From Lachnospiraceae bacterium (lineage in GTDB: Bacteria > Bacillota > Clostridia > Lachnospirales > Lachnospiraceae), in the NCBI GenBank assembly GCA_022792885.1, contig JAAWBX010000011.1, positions 1-64,000 on the forward strand: 64,000 nucleotides of DNA. The letters are read 5' to 3'. A program made the translations under genes and the position numbers. Under the pieces are notes generated by a model that was not told the origin of the DNA, searched no databases, and saw only the letters and a list, made by a program, of their open reading frames with translations. Below are positions 6,107 to 62,444 of the stretch, in pieces (position 1 is the stretch's first letter; every line of letters starts with the position of its first letter).

Positions 6107-8032
6107 TTATGGTTTTATCTCGACCTCCGCCCGAATCTCCTCTTCCAGAAGATATACCGGCGAATGAAAATAAAGCGTCACCTCCGATTGCGGTCTCTCA
6201 TCCTTACTGGTCAAGATAACCTGATTCTCAGGCCGGATACCGATTCCCGCTCTTTTCTGACCGTCCTCTGCCTCCCCGGCAAACTCCGCCGCCGCATTAA
6301 AAGAACTGAGAAGCGGCTCCCCTTCCTCTTTATCTCCCTGTCGGATTTCACATGTCAACGTATACTGCCAATAAAGTTCTCTCTCGCCCCAGGTTTCCCC
6401 TTCCCGCTCCCACCGGATCTCCCGTTCCTTCTTCTCGGCTTTCACATGAAGAATTCGCACCGTCTCGCCTCCGGGAAAGGAAAGTTCCGCCTCGGTCTCC
6501 CGGTCTTCCCCGTCCGTCGTCGGAAGCGGCAGGGTAATCTTCCCCGTCTCGGCCTCCCCCTCCAGACAAAGGCAGGGAAGCACCAGCGTATACGTCCCGG
6601 CCTCCGCTCCCTCTATGTACAGCTCTTTTCTGGCCAGCTTCGCGGTGGAGTCCGAAACCGCCTGAGCCGGATATTCCCTTCCTGCTTTATCCCTCAGATA
6701 AGCCGGACGGTAGTCCCCATTCCCGGTCCCTCTCGAAGACTGCGTCAAAAACGGCGAGACGGGATAACCTTCCCGCTCGGACAGCGAATACAAAGAAATC
6801 AGCGCGCCCTCCCCGCTTTTGCGGCCGGGTTGAATCAGGAGACTCCCTCCCGAATATTCCACCGTCTGTCCCAGAGCGGACAAATCTTCTTCAAATCGCA
6901 ATTTAGACAACGTCAGATCAAAACAGGGAACCTCCCCTTCCATACGGTACGATTCCCCCGTCTCCCTTCCGTTCTCATCATACAGGGCAATCTCCGGAAT
7001 CTCCCCGTTCTCCCGGACCGGATCCAGGCGTATCGAAAGCGACAGTTCCTCCTCGCTCTCATCCGGCGTCCAGAAAAACCAGCAGGATACCCGTTCGCCG
7101 CCTTCCAAAATCCGGCAGGACTTCCCCAGATCCGGAATCACCGATATCCCCTCTCCTTTACAGGCTCCGATATAATAATCCGCAATCGCCGGAAAACGAA
7201 ACCTCTCCCCCTCACCCGGCGGGAACGAAGCAAAAAACGCCAGATACAGCTCCCCGCTCTGATAAACCGCATCCGTTACGATAAAAGTTATGCCGTCCTT
7301 CTCGTAAAAAGGCTTCTCTCCATGCAAGGAATAGACAGGTTCCGATTCCTCCCAGTTAAATCCCGTTCTCTCATGAAATTGAAACCTGTGAAACAACATC
7401 GCCGCGCAGCCGGCCAGCACCGCAAGCAAAAGCCCCAGAAGCAGGATTTTCAGAAGCTTTTTTATACTCCGCTGGCCCCGTTTCTTCACCGTCTCATAAG
7501 GAAGTTTCATCTGAGCCGCGATCTCCTTAAAACTCAAGCCGCCGTAATATTTCATCCTCAGGATCGCTCCGTCCAAAGGTTCCAGGCGGCTTAGAATCTC
7601 CTCCAGATCTCCCTCCGCCCAAATCTCTTTTGGCGTGTTCTTCTCCTGAGCCATCTGCTCGCGAAGCTTCTCTTCCGCCCTCTCTCTGCGCTCGTTTTTC
7701 CGACACAGATCAAGCGCCTGATGATCCGCGATCGCACAGAGATATTGTTTTAACGTACCCTTTTTCGGATCGAACTTCTGGGGATTTAAAACAAACGCGG
7801 CAAAACTGTCATTCACACATTCCTTGACATCCTCCGGATCCGACAGCCGCCTGGCGCAGATTCGCCAGACCAAACCACTGTAAGCCTCCCACAGAGCAAC
7901 GGTTCCCTTCTCCCGGTCGTTTTCCAAAAGAGCTATCAGTTCTTCCTCCGTGTACCTACCCGTTTCCATCCATTCTCCTATGCTCCTTCTTGTATTAACG
8001 CAATCCTCCTCATATTTTGATTCGTTTTTCAA
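6107..8032 (-). CDS. ECF-type sigma-70 family sigma factor fused to a TM helix and ~420-aa extracytoplasmic domain (sigma/anti-sigma-like fusion)
   Basis: Region 2-like (ALWEAYSGLVWRICARRLSDPEDVKECVNDSFAAF) and region 4-like HTH (LDGAILRMKYYGGLSFKEIAAQMKLPYETVKKRGQRSIKKLL) followed by ILLLGLLLAVLAGCAAMLF TM and a long acidic C-terminal domain. Confidence 0.7.
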   Translation of the reverse strand: MKNESKYEEDCVNTRRSIGEWMETGRYTEEELIALLENDREKGTVALWEAYSGLVWRICARRLSDPEDVKECVNDSFAAFVLNPQKFDPKKGTLKQYLCAIADHQALDLCRKNERRERAEEKLREQMAQEKNTPKEIWAEGDLEEILSRLEPLDGAILRMKYYGGLSFKEIAAQMKLPYETVKKRGQRSIKKLLKILLLGLLLAVLAGCAAMLFHRFQFHERTGFNWEESEPVYSLHGEKPFYEKDGITFIVTDAVYQSGELYLAFFASFPPGEGERFRFPAIADYYIGACKGEGISVIPDLGKSCRILEGGERVSCWFFWTPDESEEELSLSIRLDPVRENGEIPEIALYDENGRETGESYRMEGEVPCFDLTLSKLRFEEDLSALGQTVEYSGGSLLIQPGRKSGEGALISLYSLSEREGYPVSPFLTQSSRGTGNGDYRPAYLRDKAGREYPAQAVSDSTAKLARKELYIEGAEAGTYTLVLPCLCLEGEAETGKITLPLPTTDGEDRETEAELSFPGGETVRILHVKAEKKEREIRWEREGETWGERELYWQYTLTCEIRQGDKEEGEPLLSSFNAAAEFAGEAEDGQKRAGIGIRPENQVILTSKDERPQSEVTLYFHSPVYLLEEEIRAEVEIKP

Positions 8033-20313: not shown

Positions 20314-21687
20314 TCAGATCAATCCCAGAAACTTCCACCAGGGAATCTCCACGCACAGAATCGTCACCAGAGTGATCCCGGTCATACCGAGTCCCATTCG
20401 AACGCACTCTTTCTGTGTATAACCTCCGTTCTCTTCCCCCACGCCTACCAGCACATTCAGGTGATGAAACGGCAGAATATAATGGCAGGCGCAGGCCGTA
20501 TACACGATCAGAGATATCGCCAGCGGCGAAACCCCGCTGCCCTCCGTAAAACTCAAAAAGGCCGGTATCGCAATCCCCATCACCGTCACGACGGAGCCCA
20601 GACACATATGTAAAACCATCGAAATCCCGGCTACCACAAGCGCCAGCACAAACGCGTTTGAAGGAACCGCCGAGGGCAAAAGCGCCCCCGCCGCCCAGGC
20701 ATTCATGCCCGTGGCTTCCCCCACGCCCCCGATCGCGGTAGCCGCCGTAAAAAACGCCAGAAGATTCACCGGTACCTGACTCCAGTCTTCCGCCGTCAAT
20801 ACGCCGCCAAAAGGCATCCCCATAAGCATGGCGATCCCCAACGTCACCCAACCGACGCCAACGCCATGAAACGATTCCGTCAGCCAGCAAACAATCGCCG
20901 CGGCAAGCCAGACCGCCGTCCGTTTTTCACCCGTGCTCAACGCGCCCAGCGCTTTCTGACGTTTTCGCATCTCTTCCACCCGCACGATCAGATTACCGGC
21001 CGGAGGAAACAAAAATAAAAATACAATGCAGGTAAGAACGGACGCCGCAAACGCCGGAAAACCCATATACAAAAACCAGGAAAAAAAGCCGCAGCTTACG
21101 CCGGAGGAAGACACCGCCAGCGGATTGATCGTGCTGTCGCCGGTCAGAAAGATCATGGATACCGGCACGGAGGCCGCAAACACGCAAAAACCGGCTTTCA
21201 CCGCATCCTCCTTTTTCAGGTCCGCACAGGCAATCACCGCCGAGACAACCGACAAAATCAACATGGCCCGAGGCCATGGATTCGGAATCAAAAGACTCAT
21301 CACGGCCGTAAGCGCAAAAATCGACACGATCAGCCCCCGATAAGAACGGACAAAACGAATCATAAAGGCATAAGCAATCCGCTCGCCCAACCCGGATTTC
21401 TTCACGGCCCCGGCAATCAAATAAGCGCCGACAATCAAATACATGGTCGGCCCCGTCCAGGAACGGAAAACCACCGACGGCTCCGCTACGCCAAAAATCA
21501 GAAGCAGCGCGACATACGCCCCTCCCACGTAACCGGAGGGAGCCGTCTGAAACGCCCACCAGATCACGGCCGTCGCCGTAAAAGCCAGACATTTTTTCCC
21601 GTTTTCTTCCAGGCCGGCCAGCGGAAGCAACCATATAAAAATACCGGCCGCCACGCCGAACAAAAAACCGGCTTTTTTCTTATCCAT
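20314..21687 (-). CDS. polytopic membrane transporter (DASS/ArsB-CitT-like anion permease superfamily)
   Basis: 457 aa, ~12 hydrophobic helices. Confidence 0.5.
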   Translation of the reverse strand: MDKKKAGFLFGVAAGIFIWLLPLAGLEENGKKCLAFTATAVIWWAFQTAPSGYVGGAYVALLLIFGVAEPSVVFRSWTGPTMYLIVGAYLIAGAVKKSGLGERIAYAFMIRFVRSYRGLIVSIFALTAVMSLLIPNPWPRAMLILSVVSAVIACADLKKEDAVKAGFCVFAASVPVSMIFLTGDSTINPLAVSSSGVSCGFFSWFLYMGFPAFAASVLTCIVFLFLFPPAGNLIVRVEEMRKRQKALGALSTGEKRTAVWLAAAIVCWLTESFHGVGVGWVTLGIAMLMGMPFGGVLTAEDWSQVPVNLLAFFTAATAIGGVGEATGMNAWAAGALLPSAVPSNAFVLALVVAGISMVLHMCLGSVVTVMGIAIPAFLSFTEGSGVSPLAISLIVYTACACHYILPFHHLNVLVGVGEENGGYTQKECVRMGLGMTGITLVTILCVEIPWWKFLGLI

Positions 21688-21767
21688 AACCTATCCCCCT
21701 GTCTATCTGCACAAACGAATAAAAACGGGCGGCTGCCGAAATCCTCCGGAAAATACCGCCCGTTCTC

Positions 21768-39242: not shown

Positions 39243-39466
39243 TCTTCCCTTTCGCGATTTTTTGTGCCTTTATCCAATTTTCATATTTATCCCCTGTAAT
39301 CACTTTACCATATTTCGACAACGTCTACAACCGGTTTTTGTATTTAGCCCTCCGTCCTGTTTAAACCCCAAAAAAGAGGCAAAAATAAAAACAGCCGGAC
39401 TTGCGAAGCATTGACATCCCAAAAACCGGCGTTCATTCAAAATCTGTTATGAAAGGAAATATCACC

Positions 39467-40156
39467 ATGATTTTTTCAACTGCGAACCCCTCGCCCTCGC
39501 GGCATCCCCTATTGCCGGACATACATATCAAACGCCGAAAAACCGTTCTGCTTCTGGGCCTGATCCTCCTGTGCCTCGGAAGCGGCCTTCTATATTTCTC
39601 TTTCCGCCGTATGGAGGCGGCCGCCGGACGGATCGCGAATCAGATCCTGCGTTTCCATGTCATCGCCAACAGCAATTCCGCCGAAGACCAGGCTTTAAAG
39701 CTGGAAGTAAAAGAAGCCCTGCTGGCTGTTCTGAACGAGAGCCCGGCTTCCTCCCGGGAAGAAATGAAATCCTATATCCGGGATCACAAAGAAGAGCTGA
39801 CCGCCGTCGCTCAAAAACTTCTCCGCGAAAAAGGAAAGGATTACCCGGTTCGGATAACCCTGACAAACACGTATTTTCCCACAAAAGTCTACGGCGACCT
39901 GACGTTCCCCTGCGGCGCTTACGACGCTCTAAAAGTGGAAATCGGACAGGCCGCCGGCAAAAACTGGTGGTGCGTACTCTACCCGCCCCTATGTTTCGCG
40001 GATGTGACCACCGGTTTCGTACCCGAAGATTCCAGAGAAGAACTCCGGGAAGTCCTGACCGACGAAGACTACGCCAGCTTAGAGCCCGGCGCACCGGAAG
40101 TCACATTCGGTTTCCGCCTTCTGGAATTGTGGGAGAAATGGTTCCCGGCTTCTTAA
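39467..40156 (+). CDS. spoIIR: stage II sporulation protein R
   Basis: RFHVIANSNSAEDQALKLEVK... and NWWCVLYPPLCF signature; alternative upstream starts at 39401/39449. Confidence 0.85.
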   Translation: MIFSTANPSPSRHPLLPDIHIKRRKTVLLLGLILLCLGSGLLYFSFRRMEAAAGRIANQILRFHVIANSNSAEDQALKLEVKEALLAVLNESPASSREEMKSYIRDHKEELTAVAQKLLREKGKDYPVRITLTNTYFPTKVYGDLTFPCGAYDALKVEIGQAAGKNWWCVLYPPLCFADVTTGFVPEDSREELREVLTDEDYASLEPGAPEVTFGFRLLELWEKWFPAS

Positions 40157-47994: not shown

Positions 47995-48047
47995 CAAAGC
48001 CACACATGCCGCCTCCTGCCGCATATGATAAAAAAAAGGATTTTTTT

Positions 48048-50948: not shown

Positions 50949-51323
50949 TGTTGCATCCTCCCGCTTTTATAGATTTTTCATTTTTCTAAAATAGCAGAGA
51001 TTCACGGGAAATGCAAGTGGGCGGCGGCTACATTTCGTATTTATTATAGTACATCGCCGGGAAACAGCAAAAAATCCGATTTTTCCCGCTTGTCTTTCTT
51101 CTATCTCGCAATTTTTTTCACATACTCCGATTTTTCCGTATTTTGTCACACGCTTCTTCGCCGCTTTGTGCTTTTCCGAAAAATCACAGGAAAATTTTGT
51201 CTTTCTGTTTCAAAAAAAACCGGGTTATGCTATACTCATATCATACACAGCAGACCGGCGCGCCATCCAAAAACAGACAACACCGGCTGCCGCTCGTAAA
51301 TATTTATAAAGGAGAACAGACCA

Positions 51324-52265
51324 ATGCCTTTAGTAAACTCAAAAGAAATGTTTGAAAGAGCGTATAAGGAGGGCTACGCCATCGGCGCTTTCAATGTAAA
51401 CGATATGGAGATCGTTCAGGGGATCACCGAAGCCGCCAAGGCGGAGAACTCGCCGGTTATCCTTCAGGTTTCCGCCGGCGCACGTAAGTACGCCAAGCAC
51501 GCCTATCTGGTCAAGCTCGTGGAAGCGGCCCTGGAAGACACGGATCTGCCGATCTGCCTGCACTTAGACCACGGCGACAGTTTCGAACTGTGCAAGGACT
51601 GCATCGACGGCGGTTTCACGTCCGTCATGATCGACGGCTCCAAACTGAGTTTTGAAGAGAACGTCGCTCTGACCAAAAAGGTCTGCGATTACGCGCATTC
51701 GCATGTACCGTACGTAACGGTAGAAGGCGAGCTGGGCAAGCTGGCCGGGATTGAGGACGCAGTCAATGTTTCCGACGAGGACGCTCAGTTTACCGACCCG
51801 AACGAAGTGGAAGAATTTGTCAAGAGGACCGGCGTGGACTCCCTGGCAATCGCTATCGGCACCTCCCACGGCGCCTACAAGTTCAAACCCGGCCAGAAGC
51901 CGCGCCTGCGTTTCGACATTCTGGAAGAAGTCTCCAAAAGACTCCCCAATTTCCCGATCGTTCTCCACGGCGCTTCCTCCGTTATGCAGGAATACGTTAA
52001 GATCGTAAACGAGAACGGCGGCCGGATGCCCGACGCGATCGGCATTCCGGAAGAGATGCTCCGTCAGGCGGCCACCATGGCGGTATGCAAGATCAACATC
52101 GATTCCGATCTCCGTCTCGCCATGACCGCGAGCATCCGCAAGCACATGAACGAGCATCCGGATCATTTTGATCCCCGTCAGTACCTGGGCGACGCGAGAG
52201 CCGCCATTCGCGAAGTGGTGCAGCACAAGATCCACGAAGTGCTGGGCAGCTCCGGCAAAGCCTGA
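51324..52265 (+). CDS. fba: fructose-bisphosphate aldolase, class II
   Basis: MPLVNSKEMFERAYKEGYAIGAFNVNDMEIVQGI... Confidence 0.95.
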   Translation: MPLVNSKEMFERAYKEGYAIGAFNVNDMEIVQGITEAAKAENSPVILQVSAGARKYAKHAYLVKLVEAALEDTDLPICLHLDHGDSFELCKDCIDGGFTSVMIDGSKLSFEENVALTKKVCDYAHSHVPYVTVEGELGKLAGIEDAVNVSDEDAQFTDPNEVEEFVKRTGVDSLAIAIGTSHGAYKFKPGQKPRLRFDILEEVSKRLPNFPIVLHGASSVMQEYVKIVNENGGRMPDAIGIPEEMLRQAATMAVCKINIDSDLRLAMTASIRKHMNEHPDHFDPRQYLGDARAAIREVVQHKIHEVLGSSGKA

Positions 52266-58057: not shown

Positions 58058-58151
58058 GGGAAATTGCCGGCAATTCCGCCAGAAATTTCAAAGAAGCTTT
58101 CCCCGCCTCCTCCTCACGTCTCTTCCTTCTCATTCATAGGGTATAATAAAA

Positions 58152-58421
58152 ATGCTATATCCGGGTGATTTTATGGAAACTACCCGTACGTTAAATTCCC
58201 TGGCCCTGAACGAAGAGGCCGTTATTATAAAGACTCCCGAAAACTCCGATTTAAGCCGCCGTCTGCTGGATCTGGGCTTTATCACAGGCACAAAGGTCCG
58301 CTGCGTCCTGACCGGACCGGGCGCCGAATCGGCCGCCTACCGAATCCGCGGCACTACCATCGCTCTAAGAAAGGAGGATGCATCTCAAATTGTCATCCAC
58401 GATCATCGCCCTCGCGGGTAA
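58152..58421 (+). CDS. feoA: ferrous iron transport protein A
   Basis: FeoA SH3-like domain, [12 protein letters not shown]...[18 protein letters not shown]. Confidence 0.7.
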
Positions 58422-58481
58422 TCCAAACGTAGGAAAAAGCACCGTCTTTAATTATCTCACCGGTATGCGGCAGCATACCGG
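58378..58481 (+). pseudogene. feoB: feoB 5' segment (G-domain P-loop), interrupted after ~35 codons by intervening element
   Basis: [26 protein letters not shown] then frame reads into insertion. Confidence 0.75.
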
Positions 58482-58713
58482 CCGCTTCCTTTACAGGCAA
58501 ATCTTTTTCCTCTTCCCTCCCCTCTTCCACCGAAACTACCTCGATCCGTATCCCTTCCCGATCCCCCAGTATTTCCGCGATCGCCTCAAAAACCTTCCGG
58601 ACATTCAACGTTTCCGCCATCGAATCCGCCCCTCCTTTCCGTTCCATGATATGCCCGCCGGATTGTCCGTTTTTCCCGCACGCACGAATCTCCGAAAAGT
58701 TTATTGACATTCG

Positions 58714-58742
58714 TATACATTTGTAATATATTTGTATCAGAA
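58714..58742 (+). promoter_or_regulatory. candidate promoter TTGACA-17-TATATT inside the element
   Basis: consensus-like hexamers upstream of element membrane-protein gene. Confidence 0.4.
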
Positions 58743-58776
58743 AAAAATCTCATCAATACCCAAGGAGGAAATTTTT

Positions 58777-59124
58777 ATGAACCCTGAAAAGAAAATGAAC
58801 AAATGCCTTTTAATCGCTCTTTTGCTAGGCGTCGCTTACATAATCTACAGCTTTGTATACTGGTCCGGCGCCGTCGGCTCCGGTACGGACGCCGAGCAGC
58901 TCGGCGCCGGAATCGCGGCCGCGCTGGTAATGCCTCATCTGATCGTAACCGCGCTGGCCGTCATCTTCAACGCGCTCGGCCTGTTCCTGCGCAAACGGGG
59001 GTTTGCTTTAACCGGCGCCATTCTGTATACCGTAGCCATCGTGCTGTTCCCCGCGTACTTTATGTTCGTCATTCTTCAGATGATCTTATCCTATATCGGT
59101 TTTGCCGGTCTTAAAAAGAAATAA
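58777..59124 (+). CDS. small membrane protein carried by the intervening element
   Basis: AAGGAGG RBS; 3 hydrophobic helices. Confidence 0.5.
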   Translation: MNPEKKMNKCLLIALLLGVAYIIYSFVYWSGAVGSGTDAEQLGAGIAAALVMPHLIVTALAVIFNALGLFLRKRGFALTGAILYTVAIVLFPAYFMFVILQMILSYIGFAGLKKK

Positions 59125-59258
59125 ACACGAATGCCGTCACCTGACAAAGGCGTATACGCCATGATCGGGCGGCGGCATTTTTGCAAGAAAACCCGTATCA
59201 TTCATGAAGCCGGCGGAGAAGAAATAGGAATAAATAAAGAACGTTTCGGGAGCCGCTC

Positions 59259-60644
59259 ATGGATTCTTCCCGCATCTCCTCTCCGCTTCGCACCGCCGTC
59301 TACATCCGGGTCTCCAGCGAAGAACAGGCCAAACACGGCGATTCGCTCCGCGACCAGACGGAAAGCTGCCTGCATTATATCGACACCCATGAAAACCTGA
59401 TTCTCCAGGATACCTATATGGACGAAGGAATCTCCGGCCAGAAACCGGACCGAGACGCGTTCACGCGCCTGATGGAGGCCGTCGAGAACGACCAAATCGA
59501 TTTTATCCTCTTCACAAAACTTGACCGTTGGTTCCGCTCCCTCCGGCATTATCTCAACACACAGGACGTTTTGGACCGCCACCGGGTAGCCTGGCTGGCC
59601 GTCGATCAGCCCTATTTCGACACCTCCACCCCCTTCGGCCGGGCCTTCGTCAACCAGTCCATGACCTGGGCCGAACTGGAAGCGCAAAACGGAGCGACCC
59701 GAATCAAAGACGTCTTTGCCAACAAAGTGGCCAACGGCGAAGTCATCACCGGAAAAACCCCTCTCGGATTCCGGATCGAAAACAAACACCTGATTCCCGA
59801 TGAAAACGCCCGAATCGCCCGAACCGCCTTTCAACATTACCTCAAGTACAATTCCCTGCACAAAACGCTGCGGATGCTGAGCGACGATTTCGGCATTTTC
59901 ATGAGCATCCAGAACCTGAGAGAATCCGTCCTGAAAAACACAAAATACATCGGCGTTTACCGGGACAATAAAAATTACTGTCCCAGGCTCGTGGACGACG
60001 AAACTTTCTATCAGGTTCAGGCGCTGTTAAAACAGAATATCCCCGCCTCCCAGAAATACACCTATCTTTTCTCCGGCCTTCTATACTGCGAATCCTGCGG
60101 AAGGAAAATGACAAGCGGCCATATTCACGTCAAATCCACCCGAAAGGGAATCGTGCGCCGCTACCGCTACCCTTCCTACTCCTGTCCCGGTCATGCGCGG
60201 CGCGCAGGCTGCCCGAACGGAGGGGAGATCCGCGAAAGCCGGATCGAGGAATACCTGCTGAACCACCTCGGGCAGCGTCTTCTCGGCTGTACGGCTACCT
60301 ACAAAAAAAACGACATCCCCCGGGCCGATTCCCGGATCAAACGCCGCAACCTCCAAAATAAAATCAGCCGCCTGAAAGATCTGTATCTGGCGGAAGCCAT
60401 CACACTGGACGAACTGAAACGATACCGCACCGAATACCTCGAACAACTGGCCGCCGTTCCTTCCGATACGGAACCGATCCGGGATCTTTCCCGCTTAGAA
60501 CACCTTCTGTCCATGGATTTTGAAACCGTCTACGCCTCCTTTGATAATGAAGAAAAACGCCGCTTCTGGCGTTCCGTGATCCGTGAAATCCATATCTCAA
60601 AAAGCCGGGATAAAAAACGCGATTACCGGATCCTTTTCAAATAA
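59259..60644 (+). CDS. large serine recombinase (resolvase/invertase catalytic domain + recombinase domain + zinc ribbon)
   Basis: catalytic AVYIRVSSEEQ; C-terminal CESCGRKM...CPGHARRAGCPNG zinc ribbon and coiled-coil. Confidence 0.9.
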   Translation: MDSSRISSPLRTAVYIRVSSEEQAKHGDSLRDQTESCLHYIDTHENLILQDTYMDEGISGQKPDRDAFTRLMEAVENDQIDFILFTKLDRWFRSLRHYLNTQDVLDRHRVAWLAVDQPYFDTSTPFGRAFVNQSMTWAELEAQNGATRIKDVFANKVANGEVITGKTPLGFRIENKHLIPDENARIARTAFQHYLKYNSLHKTLRMLSDDFGIFMSIQNLRESVLKNTKYIGVYRDNKNYCPRLVDDETFYQVQALLKQNIPASQKYTYLFSGLLYCESCGRKMTSGHIHVKSTRKGIVRRYRYPSYSCPGHARRAGCPNGGEIRESRIEEYLLNHLGQRLLGCTATYKKNDIPRADSRIKRRNLQNKISRLKDLYLAEAITLDELKRYRTEYLEQLAAVPSDTEPIRDLSRLEHLLSMDFETVYASFDNEEKRRFWRSVIREIHISKSRDKKRDYRILFK

Positions 60645-60668
60645 TTTTTCCTGTAAAAGAAGCTGCCG

Positions 60669-62444
60669 ACCGGAAACTGGCCCGGAAAAACGGTGGATCT
60701 GGCAGACGGCACGTACGAATACCGCGGTCAAAACTACACGCTGGTCGATCTGCCGGGCACTTACTCTTTGCTGGCCCACTCCACCGAAGAAGAGGTCGCC
60801 AGAGACTTTATCTGCGGCGGGTCGGCAGACCTGACCCTGGTTGTCTGCGACGCAACCTGCCTGGAACGGAACTTAAATCTGGTCCTCCAGATCCGGGCTC
60901 TGACCCCCTGGGTTATCCTCTGCGTCAATCTCTGCGACGAAGCCGCCAAAAAAGGAATCTCCGTGGATTTTACGGAGCTTTCAAGGCAACTGAACATTCC
61001 GGTTGTGGGAGCAAGCGCCGCCGCCGGGGAAGGAATGGCCGCCCTCATGGCCACCGTCGAGGCCATGAGCCTTCGAAAAAAAGAGACGGCGGAAGAAGAA
61101 ACCTGCGGCTGCCAGAGCCTGAATGAAGTCTCGGTCTCCCAGTTGATCCTGAAAGCGGAAGAAATCGCCGCCTCCAGCGTATCTTTCCAAAATCCCGAAT
61201 ACGACCGGCGCGACCGGAAACTTGACCGAATCGTCACCAGTCGTATTTTCGGTATTCCGATCATGCTCTCTCTTTTGATGCTGATCTTCTGGATCACCCT
61301 GACGGGCGCCAATTACCCCTCCGCCCTCCTAAGCCGGCTTTTTGACCTCGGGCATACAAAACTTCTGGCTCTCGCGACAGCCGCCCGGGCCCCCGTCTGG
61401 CTGTCCGGACTTCTGGTAGACGGGATCTATCAGGTCCTGACCTGGGTCGTCGCCGTTATGCTGCCCCCCATGGCGATCTTCTTTCCGCTGTTTACCCTGT
61501 TGGAAGATTTCGGCTATCTTCCCCGGATCGCCTTCAACCTTGATCATTGCTTCAAAAAATGCGCCGCCTGCGGAAAACAGGCGCTGACGATGTGCATGGG
61601 CTTCGGCTGCAACGCCGTGGGCGTCACCGGCTGCCGGATCATCGATTCGGAACGGGAGCGTCTGATCGCGATGCTGACCAACGCTTTTGTCCCCTGCAAC
61701 GGGCGTTTTCCTTCGCTGCTCACGGTGATCTCCCTGTTCTTCCTTTCCGGCGCTTCCGGTCTGACGGGCAGCCTTCTGTCGGCTCTTTTACTGACCCTGG
61801 TAATCGCTCTGGGCGTGCTCCTGACTTTCGCCGCCTCCAAACTCCTCTCGAAAACGCTGCTGAAAGGTTCGCCCTCGGCCTTCACGCTGGAACTTCCGCC
61901 TTACCGAAAGCCTCAGATCGGAAAAGTGATCGTCCGTTCTCTTTTAGACCGCACCCTGTTTGTCCTGGGGCGGGCCGTTTTGGTCGCCGCCCCGGCCGGA
62001 CTGATCATCTGGCTGCTTGCCAACCTCATGTTGCCGGACGGCACCTCCCTTTTGCTGTTTCTCGCCGGCTGCCTGGATCCCCTGGGACGTCTGATGGGTC
62101 TGGACGGCGTGATCTTAATGGCTTTCCTTCTCGGTTTTCCGGCCAATGAGATCGTCCTTCCGATCGCCCTGATGGCCTATCTGCAGACCGGGACGCTTGT
62201 CGACGCCGGCAGCCTGACCGGGCTCGGCTCCCTCCTGGCCGCCAACGGATGGACCTGGACCACGGCGGTTTCCTTTTTATTGTTCTGTCTGCTGCACTGG
62301 CCCTGCTCCACCACCTGTTTGACAATCCGCAAGGAAACCGGTTCCTGGCGTTACACCGGTCTCGCCGTTTTGCTGCCCACCGCCTGCGGCGCGGCTCTCT
62401 GCATCGGCGTCACCTGCCTGTTCCGGGCCCTGGGCCTGGCCTGA
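60669..62444 (+). CDS. feoB: feoB 3' segment (remainder of G-domain + membrane permease domain)
   Basis: NWPGKTVDLADGTYEYRGQNYTLVDLPGTYSL..., polytopic C-terminal domain. Confidence 0.85.
   Translation, partial: TGNWPGKTVDLADGTYEYRGQNYTLVDLPGTYSLLAHSTEEEVARDFICGGSADLTLVVCDATCLERNLNLVLQIRALTPWVILCVNLCDEAAKKGISVDFTELSRQLNIPVVGASAAAGEGMAALMATVEAMSLRKKETAEEETCGCQSLNEVSVSQLILKAEEIAASSVSFQNPEYDRRDRKLDRIVTSRIFGIPIMLSLLMLIFWITLTGANYPSALLSRLFDLGHTKLLALATAARAPVWLSGLLVDGIYQVLTWVVAVMLPPMAIFFPLFTLLEDFGYLPRIAFNLDHCFKKCAACGKQALTMCMGFGCNAVGVTGCRIIDSERERLIAMLTNAFVPCNGRFPSLLTVISLFFLSGASGLTGSLLSALLLTLVIALGVLLTFAASKLLSKTLLKGSPSAFTLELPPYRKPQIGKVIVRSLLDRTLFVLGRAVLVAAPAGLIIWLLANLMLPDGTSLLLFLAGCLDPLGRLMGLDGVILMAFLLGFPANEIVLPIALMAYLQTGTLVDAGSLTGLGSLLAANGWTWTTAVSFLLFCLLHWPCSTTCLTIRKETGSWRYTGLAVLLPTACGAALCIGVTCLFRALGLA

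Follow-up and report, generated by a model that had tools for sequence, protein, structure and literature searches.

Here, we describe a feoB gene that is interrupted by a 2.2-kb element in a 64,000-nt stretch of DNA from a Lachnospiraceae bacterium (contig JAAWBX010000011.1; this whole stretch is called the window below). The insert encodes a large serine recombinase (LSR), and joining the two flanking parts of feoB at a duplicated core restores a complete FeoB reading frame. We favor the reading that this is a skin-like intervening element: a domesticated temperate-phage integration module which would be excised in the mother cell during sporulation, and which resides in a feoAB operon predicted to depend on sigma-K. 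We give this reading a probability of roughly 0.68. It draws on the structure of the split gene, on the phage relatives of the LSR and their shared target codon, on selection and co-divergence in the Lacrimispora clade, and on conserved promoter-like motifs upstream of feoA and of a small gene within the element.

The end of feoA (58421) overlaps the feoB start at 58378. The FeoB frame can be read for 35 residues, up to 58481/58482, and is degenerate after that point. An earlier note on this DNA, made from the letters and their translations, had seen the FeoB G-domain begin at 58378 and lose sense at 58481, as we find. It let feoB resume at 60669; the frame does resume there and runs to the stop at 62444, but 60669 is the start of the repeated core, and the first Asn codon begins at 60675. 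The core is the pentamer ACCGG, present at 58477-58481 and again at 60669-60673, and the frame after the second copy reads (G)NWPGKTVDLADG. An in-frame splice at the core yields an open reading frame (ORF) of 624 aa. The spliced protein matches Pfam FeoB_N in a single stretch (positions 3-155/156, E 2.8e-55) and also has Gate and FeoB_C domains. In alignments with intact FeoB relatives (89%, 84% and 75% identity), no gap falls at the junction. The proposal that precise excision would regenerate a feoB reading ...HTGNWPGKTV..., colinear with the intact protein, is borne out in this respect.

Comparison with uninterrupted relatives, also suggested earlier, locates the empty site. At the corresponding position, the relative with the 89% identical FeoB (locus L054) has CAGCATACCGGCAACTGGCCCGG; its contig is syntenic (M20 peptidase, feoA, feoB), with flanking DNA 82–86% identical to the window. 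A second relative (84% FeoB identity) is likewise uninterrupted, and the sequence of the unsplit target, attB, is CAGCACACCGGAAACTGGCC. A same-species genome without the insert was looked for; all three other contigs found carry the element. The G+C content is 52% in the insert versus 59% in feoB. Chance is not a credible explanation for the structure of this split gene. A 583-aa product is present in databases, and split feoB genes have likely been mis-annotated as pseudogenes or truncated proteins.

The ends of the element, imperfect inverted repeats in the earlier note, form the longest inverted repeat of the region (58479-58508 versus 60639-60668; 30 nt, 80% complementary). Between them lie three genes only. 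The LSR and a small membrane protein had been recognized before, whereas the third, a short ORF on the minus strand, had been missed. Structural, lysis and replication modules, which a functional prophage would carry, are absent. Coordinates are collected in the table. The LSR matches the PHROG 95 integrase family (E 9e-99) and Pfam Resolvase over residues 13-161 (E 6e-29). Residues R17, S19 and S20 of its YIRVSSEEQ motif are invariant in 33 homologues, and the window LSR, itself one of the 33, keeps every invariant column of that alignment. The closest solved catalytic domain is that of the TP901-1 integrase (E 2e-15). An AlphaFold2 (AF2) model (predicted local distance difference test, pLDDT, 79.7) has the usual domain order with a helical hairpin (359-377 / 383-399) after the zinc ribbon; in this model of moderate confidence, residues 359-399 would represent the coiled-coil motif. 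The best Foldseek matches are full-length complexes of an integrase with att DNA and a recombination directionality factor (RDF), led by 9dxd (E 6e-20) and followed by Bxb1, LI integrase and phiC31. Among curated families, NCBIfam recomb_XisF scores best, with 143 bits against a cutoff of 375; because this is far below the equivalog cutoff, the LSR is not an orthologue of XisF or SpoIVCA. A Pfam search with the 115-aa membrane protein returned no match. The sigma-70-type promoter candidate that faces the membrane-protein and LSR genes is consistent, as far as its sequence goes, with constitutive LSR expression, as for C. difficile CD1231. An intron, intein or insertion sequence was also considered for the insert, and is ruled out by the serine integrase, the att-type inverted repeats and the duplicated core.

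Table. Positions of the features discussed in the text; numbering is that of the window unless a locus is named.
Feature	Position	Strand	Remarks
spoIIR (host context)	39401-40156	+	Pfam Spore_II_R, E 3e-47; NWWCVLYPPLCF motif
Candidate sigma-K-type promoter of feoAB	58116-58143	+	AC-N17-CATAGGGTA; sole AC-N17-CATANNNTA match on either strand of the 64-kb window
feoA, 82 aa	58173-58421	+	Pfam FeoA, E 6e-15; alternative start further upstream at 58152
feoB 5′ segment	58378-58481	+	Codons 1-34 and first two bases of Gly35; holds P-loop GNPNVGKS
Small conserved ORF (candidate RDF), 75 aa as integrated	58393-58620	-	Conserved residues 1-40
attL	58455-58508		feoB half-site, core ACCGG 58477-58481 (probable crossover AC 58477-58478), element half-site CGGCCGCTTCCTTTACAGG
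Intervening element, 2,192 bp	58479-60670		From base after attL AC to attR AC; equivalent to 58482-60673
Regulatory block of small ORF	58630-58677	-	GGGAAAAA 58670-58677; GGACAAT SpoIIID-like box 58662-58668; CATATCAT -10-like 58646-58653; ribosome-binding site AGGAGGG 58630-58636
Candidate sigma-70-type promoter	58704-58732	+	TTGACA-17-TATATT; 11/12 consensus positions; faces membrane-protein and LSR genes
Cargo gene, 115-aa hydrophobic membrane protein	58777-59124	+	PHROG phrog_31229 (phage, function unknown), E 8e-28
LSR, 461 aa	59259-60644	+	Catalytic Ser in AVYIRVSSEEQ; Pfam Resolvase, Recombinase, Zn_ribbon_recom
attR	60639-60700		Element half-site CCTGTAAAAGAAGCTGCCG, core ACCGG 60669-60673 (probable AC 60669-60670), feoB half-site
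feoB 3′ segment	60674-62444	+	Third base of Gly35, then NWPGKTV... to stop; 589 uninterrupted codons
Second element, 4.9-7.0 kb	L013:863-7806		Also in L015, L016, L019, L020, L023, L029, L051; core ATGTG, inverted repeats ACAGAAGAAATCTATGCTTTTTT / AAAAAAGCATAGATTTC..CTGTC

In serine integrases, a non-palindromic central dinucleotide alone sets the polarity of recombination. Joining the two element half-sites gives a reconstructed attP, CCTGTAAAAGAAGCTGCCG-AC-CGGCCGCTTCCTTTACAGG, which is palindromic at 17 of 19 positions and centered on AC. These two bases open a Thr codon (Thr34, in the FeoB G-domain). The sequence shared by attL and attR varies across the bounded loci from CACC up to 15 bp, and the common denominator contains AC. 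In elements inserted the other way round, the attP is just as palindromic and reads GT in the direction of the LSR, and a phage form (L001) has the attP GTAACCG-AC-CGGAAG, 25 nt after the LSR stop. This pattern matches the prediction of serine-integrase biology; the 5-bp core described earlier is therefore probably a 2-bp crossover extended by fortuitous identity. Its duplication at both junctions stands, while the crossover itself is most likely the AC dinucleotide within it. A palindromic CG crossover, which might have explained the two orientations, was rejected: two loci (L023, L025) share only CACC between their two junctions, and both types of attP are centered on AC.

The window LSR has more than 1,300 homologues, and we compared 51 genome loci with LSR homologues of 42–60% identity. 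In about 33 of these, the LSR directly abuts a split feoB, and the cut is always ...QHT(G) / NWPGKTV.... Carrier genomes other than that of the window are, by their record titles, Lacrimispora, Hungatella and several Clostridium species. Isolates with the element include Lacrimispora xylanisolvens DSM 3808, L. amygdalina DSM 12857, [Clostridium] aerotolerans DSM 5434 and Hungatella hathewayi DSM 13479. Two orientations are seen, with the LSR either beside the feoB 3′ part, as in the window, or antisense beside the 5′ part. Nineteen elements could be bounded on both sides; 15 of them (window included) measure 2,119–2,444 bp and the other four 3.5–3.8 kb. In other genomes the element exceeds 10 kb. 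Some elements are full prophages, locus L002 among them; the full prophage of Clostridium sp. AM58-1XD encodes Cro/CI-like regulators and has ERF, HNH and Abi genes. In IMG/VR, members of the family were found on 166 viral contigs; many of these are 30–45 kb long with the LSR at the extreme end, and several are flanked by pieces of feoB. The homologue nearest to the window LSR (63%) is that of the phage form L001, a phage-type contig on which it lies beside lysin, holin and tail genes, with no feoB nearby. The phage modules that the window element lacks are present in L001, L002 and the IMG/VR contigs. Because the LSR belongs to a large family of phage integrases whose target is precisely this codon of feoB, we regard the window element as a reduced prophage.

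Reduction of the feoB prophage to a mini-element happened repeatedly: in a neighbor-joining tree, the mini-element LSRs are scattered over four or more positions among those of prophages. Each reduction keeps the LSR, the small ORF and the block upstream of the latter, with variable cargo. The cargo is a membrane protein in the window lineage, a lipoprotein in Lacrimispora and a helix-turn-helix (HTH) protein in L017 and L048 (both assignments Pfam-checked), and a HIT-family protein plus a 419-aa NRAMP-like metal transporter in the 3.7–3.8 kb elements of L018 and L050, which occupy the same site (site 1). In these last two loci, a metal transporter is thus encoded inside an element that interrupts a metal transporter gene.

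Evidence that a split feoB can remain functional comes from 13 loci with a homologous element in the same orientation, representing Lacrimispora species, a Hungatella metagenome-assembled genome (MAG) and MAGs that bear the label Paenibacillaceae. Downstream of the element, all 13 have a 381-codon feoB segment free of stops and frameshifts. By the Nei-Gojobori method, its dN/dS (omega) is 0.02–0.11 over dS values from 0.12 to more than 1 (saturation). Omega is 0.05–0.18 for the LSR, 0.04–0.2 for the small ORF and 0.08–0.33 for the lipoprotein cargo. The dS of the LSR tracks that of feoB pair by pair (correlation of pS, the proportion of synonymous differences, 0.986 over 55 pairs), which means that vertical inheritance has kept the element in place since these species diverged. 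Together, strong purifying selection on the split feoB and its co-divergence with the element rule out a simple insertional pseudogene in the Lacrimispora clade. It also follows from this selection that the gene is reassembled somewhere, without loss of the element from the germ line. For the window branch, a three-taxon estimate gives a feoB omega of 0.094 (dS 0.42) versus 0.114 and 0.102 in the two uninterrupted relatives, an estimate that shows no relaxation of selection on the window feoB.

The small minus-strand ORF, which begins at 58620 and is preceded by a good ribosome-binding site, belongs to a family of conserved proteins of 45–55 aa. With a hidden Markov model built without the window copy, it is the sole match in the six-frame translation of the window (E 1e-10). 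Members of the family occur at 44 of 53 loci, and in every case they are encoded on the strand that does not hold the LSR. Within the early operon of prophage L002, the ORF comes directly after a Cro-like gene, where an excisionase or RDF is classically located. Searches against Pfam, NCBIfam and PHROG gave nothing meaningful, and a phmmer search of the full library with the window protein returned only itself and three short proteins. The protein constitutes a new family, and we infer that it is the RDF of this system. The RDFs known from intervening elements are just as short and likewise have no recognizable motifs (GirX, 42 aa; CD1234, 72 aa). The window copy lacks the family's usual stop codon and therefore reads across attL, antisense to the first 29 feoB codons (58393-58481). 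After excision it would read into the other end of the element, giving a protein whose tail differs between the integrated and excised states.

A block of about 45 nt precedes the small ORF. Across 33 distinct sequences it takes the form GG(A/T)AA(G/C)-AAG(T/G)ACAAAC(A/C)G-N5-CATACA(A/T)T, then 8–10 nt and the ribosome-binding site, with the spacing GGAAA(C/G)-N17-CATACA(A/T)T and an embedded G(G/T)ACAAAC box; the window sequence is GGGAAAAACGGACAATCCGGCGGGCATATCAT (58646-58677, minus strand). The block is kept in mini-elements and in feoB-targeting prophages, and is absent from distant clades of the LSR family that do have the small ORF. CATACAnT is the -10 consensus of B. subtilis sigma-E, and the consensus of SpoIIID is WWRRACAR-Y (idealized, TAGGACAAGC), which the G(G/T)ACAAAC box fits. 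The (G/C) located 17 nt before CATA mirrors an AC-N17-CATA geometry. By these consensus matches, and with an atypical -35, the small ORF may be under a mother-cell promoter of sigma-E/K type with a SpoIIID-like box. The earlier note had suggested a search for a sigma-E/K-type promoter upstream of the recombinase; the candidate found there is of the sigma-70 type, and it is the small ORF that is preceded by a CATA-type block. Such a division of labor is known from C. difficile, where CD1234 is controlled by sigma-E and SpoIIID and its recombinase is driven by sigma-A. We also considered a LexA, Fur or cre site for the GTAC-containing block; spacing and sequence do not fit the consensus of these sites.

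The feoAB operon itself may be transcribed late in the mother cell. In C. difficile, promoters of sigma-E and sigma-K share their -10 element and have ATA and AC, respectively, at -35. The feoA-feoB operon of that organism (CD1518-CD1517) belongs to the sigma-K regulon, with expression down 20-fold in a sigK mutant, and the mapped feoA (CD1518) promoter TAAAAGTAACAAGGTAATAATATAATGCATAGTTTAAATA has the form AC-N17-CATAGTTTA. We find AC-N16/17-CATANNNTA upstream of feoA in 25 of 26 distinct lineages, the window and the empty-site relatives included, and in 0 of the 26 reverse complements. The motif lies 53–82 nt before the start codon (163 nt in one lineage); across lineages its AC and CATA...TA positions are kept, with unrelated sequences as spacers. 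From this geometry and the C. difficile precedent, the interrupted feoAB operon is predicted to depend on sigma-K. As a predictor for the whole window, AC-N16-CATANNNTA was discarded. It has four matches, all on the plus strand (6923-6949, 21667-21693, 48004-48030, 51219-51245), versus 0.64 expected from shuffles, and one of them is upstream of the gene for class II fructose-bisphosphate aldolase (51324-52265); the pattern alone is thus unspecific for sporulation genes.

The host is a predicted endospore former by virtue of spoIIR, which was correctly reported before and lies within the window. Along with this gene, the reconstituted FeoB, the selection data from Lacrimispora and the sigma-K-type promoter of feoA support the interpretation, already put forward in the earlier note, that the insert resembles sporulation elements such as skin; excision itself we infer. 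We propose that in vegetative cells and in the forespore, which constitutes the germ line, the element would be integrated and feoB split, the LSR being unable on its own to recombine attL with attR. In the sporulating mother cell, the small gene would be transcribed from its mother-cell promoter (sigma-E/K-type -10 plus SpoIIID-like box), and the small protein would switch the constitutively present LSR to recombination of attL with attR at the AC. The 2.2-kb circle would be lost and an intact feoB rebuilt, and sigma-K RNA polymerase would then transcribe the restored operon. As lysis is the fate of the mother cell, we propose that the element would never be lost from the lineage. As for the function of FeoB in that compartment, our guess is that it supplies Fe2+ for iron proteins made late in sporulation.

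A number of observations weigh against this reading. The excised junction (attB or attP) of the window element, or of any mini-element, was not seen in assemblies. The window element is integrated in 4 of 4 samples, the three other copies being 100% identical to it. The window attP had 0 matches in viral contigs and the Lacrimispora attP had 0 matches in metagenome contigs, negatives that carry no weight because a control with the integrated attL matched only one contig (these collections barely hold the organisms in question). In L050 and L051 the LSR is frameshifted, and the system can therefore decay. No known RDF shows detectable similarity to the small protein; in the promoter block of its gene, the -35 region lacks the textbook sigma-E ATA, and the AC of sigma-K is found in only about one-third of the sequences. 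The feoA promoter of the window overlaps a perfect TATAAT, making use by sigma-A possible, and AC-N16-CATANNNTA also precedes the aldolase gene, a housekeeping gene. Likening the window feoB to sigma-K-regulated CD1517 assumes that the two are orthologous. One caveat to the selection argument is that, for the window, it is borrowed by analogy from the Lacrimispora clade, there being no second genome of the window lineage with the element; the three-taxon estimate is compatible with a recent insertion.

Some of these points would be accommodated if the insert were an inert remnant, that is, a feoB prophage decayed to 2.2 kb whose remaining genes have not yet decayed, in a cell where feoB is dead and its loss is tolerated through other iron uptake systems. 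The element is clearly phage-derived, the uninterrupted relatives indicate that the insertion is not ancestral to the genus, and the unseen excision product, the missing stop codon of the small ORF and the LSR frameshifts in L050 and L051 are all in keeping with decay. We consider such a remnant unlikely. The window LSR retains all family-invariant residues, and the 589-codon 3′ part of feoB is intact, with the low omega on the window branch (0.094 over dS 0.42). Reduction stopped at the LSR, small ORF and promoter block in at least four independent lineages, and the Lacrimispora arrangement has persisted over saturated dS with feoB omega at 0.02–0.11. A purely selfish mini-element, which repeatedly invades the conserved feoB G-domain, is mobilized by helper phages and has no role for the host, would explain why the target is among the most conserved stretches of feoB, and thus an ideal attB, why the family is widespread in both orientations, and why the cargo varies among elements. 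Transfer and packaging functions are absent from the element, however, and the equality of LSR dS and feoB dS across the 55 pairs (r = 0.986) points to vertical inheritance in situ rather than repeated invasion. Since it would also leave the purifying selection on the split feoB unexplained, we view this as a very improbable account.

It is also conceivable that feoB is switched reversibly in vegetative cells (active lysogeny), with iron limitation or an SOS cue exciting excision in a subpopulation and the LSR re-integrating the circle. Re-integration would be possible because LSRs integrate without cofactors; the LSR apparently has a sigma-70-type promoter; the NRAMP-like cargo of two site-1 elements hints at metal homeostasis; and the full-size relatives must excise upon lytic induction as well. 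Yet a 2.2-kb circle with no replicon would be diluted out in dividing cells, which is hard to square with strict vertical co-divergence, and where two or three independent elements interrupt feoB (see below) they would need to fire together. The small ORF and feoA are both preceded by conserved motifs of the CATA mother-cell type, rather than by LexA-, Fur- or DtxR-like ones, and feoAB of C. difficile is sigma-K dependent. A vegetative switch thus seems rather unlikely to us, and excision in the mother cell remains the reading that we prefer.

Intervening elements that are excised in the mother cell are known in sigK, spoVFB, spoVR, gerE, spsM and yabG. A literature search on feoB together with a serine recombinase, a prophage/attB or an intervening element found no paper that links them, and the supplement of a survey of regulated gene integrity has no such entry either. 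The nearest parallel is skin in sigK (SpoIVCA in B. subtilis; CD1231/CD1234 in C. difficile). As in skin, an LSR at the element's edge splits a gene and excision would restore its frame, the gene in question being, for feoB by prediction, a mother-cell gene. A survey of skin elements found sizes of 2.6–48 kb, variable orientation, a recombinase always at the edge and recombinases interspersed with phage integrases, and the feoB elements show the same pattern of size range, orientation and phage-integrase kinship. The likeness to the C. difficile element, skinCd, extends in silico to a sigma-70-type promoter for the LSR and a CATA/SpoIIID-like box for the small ORF. The feoB element differs in that its target is a metal transporter gene and not a sigma factor gene, that the window LSR is shorter (461 aa) and not orthologous, and that its small protein shows no sequence relationship with CD1234; it is also known here from sequence alone.

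Other systems resemble the feoB element in particular respects. The gin element in gerE of B. cereus ATCC 10987 is, like the feoB mini-elements, not a prophage and follows the same minimal logic of LSR plus RDF: its LSR GirC and the tiny RDF GirX (42 aa) are all that sporulation-specific reconstitution needs, and their activity has been shown in vivo and in vitro. It has three recombinase genes and more cargo, its target and protein families differ, and RDF activity in the feoB element is a prediction. In B. subtilis, SPbeta is described as an active prophage that splits the mother-cell gene spsM, with a single int-RDF pair (SprA/SprB) serving both lytic excision and sporulation-specific reconstitution. 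In the 30–45-kb feoB prophages (L002, IMG/VR contigs), the small ORF is preceded by the block also seen in the mini-elements, which by analogy suggests a comparable dual lytic and sporulation use of their int-RDF pair; target and families are different, and the window element is devoid of any phage functions. The architecture of yin in yabG also matches that of the feoB element. Cyanobacterial heterocyst elements (nifD, fdxN with XisF, hupL) share with the feoB elements the excision in a terminally differentiated cell that we propose for the latter, and the occurrence of several elements per gene or operon, whereas cell type, regulators and phylum are different and the window LSR is no member of XisF. 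Finally, the C. difficile feoAB operon (CD1518-CD1517) has the promoter geometry seen before the feoA genes that precede split feoB genes, although feoB of C. difficile 630 is not interrupted.

In Lacrimispora-type genomes, feoB is interrupted more than once. A second cut is always at ...CGKQALTM / CMGFGCNA, and the element inserted there has its own LSR of 539 aa, 22% identical to the first, with an MCP, a VanW-like protein and a CcdA-thioredoxin protein as cargo. The second LSR co-diverges with the host (omega 0.12–0.21), and the third piece of feoB has an omega of 0.03–0.05; for all three feoB pieces, omega is 0.02–0.11 in the Lacrimispora clade. Four genomes (L016, L019, L020, L023) have a third break after ...NNFVPCNGRFP, about 60 codons past the second element, leaving feoB in four pieces; in these four, the third element extends beyond the fetched loci. 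Heterocyst-specific genes provide precedents for several independent elements within a single gene, and such multiplicity in feoB fits a gene required only by a terminal cell. In L013, a conserved small ORF (MDLSKESTYEKKWGEKKTAVLIERCYQGEASVKELVLSLLKKRLEAG...) lies directly upstream of the second LSR and is preceded by TATGGTACAAACCnTTATGAATAAGATTTTTCAGGAGG. The upstream block of the second element and that of the first share a GTACAAACC box, a similarity in sequence that hints at a common host regulator.

A broader proposition, to which we give even odds, is that feoAB of sporulating Lachnospiraceae would be a late mother-cell operon gated by independently captured int-RDF modules, with up to three unrelated LSR elements, and that a new RDF family would have gained its sigma-E/K and SpoIIID promoter while still in the phage. 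If so, the phage would have been pre-adapted to harmless residence in a sporulation gene, and spore formation by gut anaerobes would include iron import as a developmentally licensed step. A metal transporter as target extends intervening elements to a metabolic function, and the host range extends them to the Lachnospiraceae, dominant and poorly studied spore formers of the gut. What sets the feoB system apart is this transporter target, the repeated domestication and the presence of up to three elements per gene. Co-divergence, low omega and up to three split sites make for unusually clean evidence of a split gene that is kept functional, and the data point to a testable role of Fe2+ import in the mother cell. 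Compact serine integrases (~460 aa) with defined attP and attB sites and a candidate RDF of 45–55 aa may also be useful parts for genome engineering.

Several further loci deserve mention. Among cultured phages, the closest integrases are gp01 of the Enterococcus faecalis phages phiFL1-3 (41% identity), and two Enterococcus loci (L045, L047) have family members with no feoB nearby. In Clostridium sp. Marseille-P2415 (L006), two copies of feoA and of the feoB 5′ and 3′ parts appear to surround the element, with runs of N between them; this doubling is probably a scaffolding artefact or a tandem duplication. Loci L143 and L144 encode an apparently intact FeoB (P0162, 65% identical to the window protein) with no feoA. 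About 390 nt separate the start of this feoB from the end of phage lysin and holin genes upstream, which may represent another association between phage and feoB. A sigma-K-like AC-N17-CATACATTA lies 215 nt upstream of feoB in these two loci.

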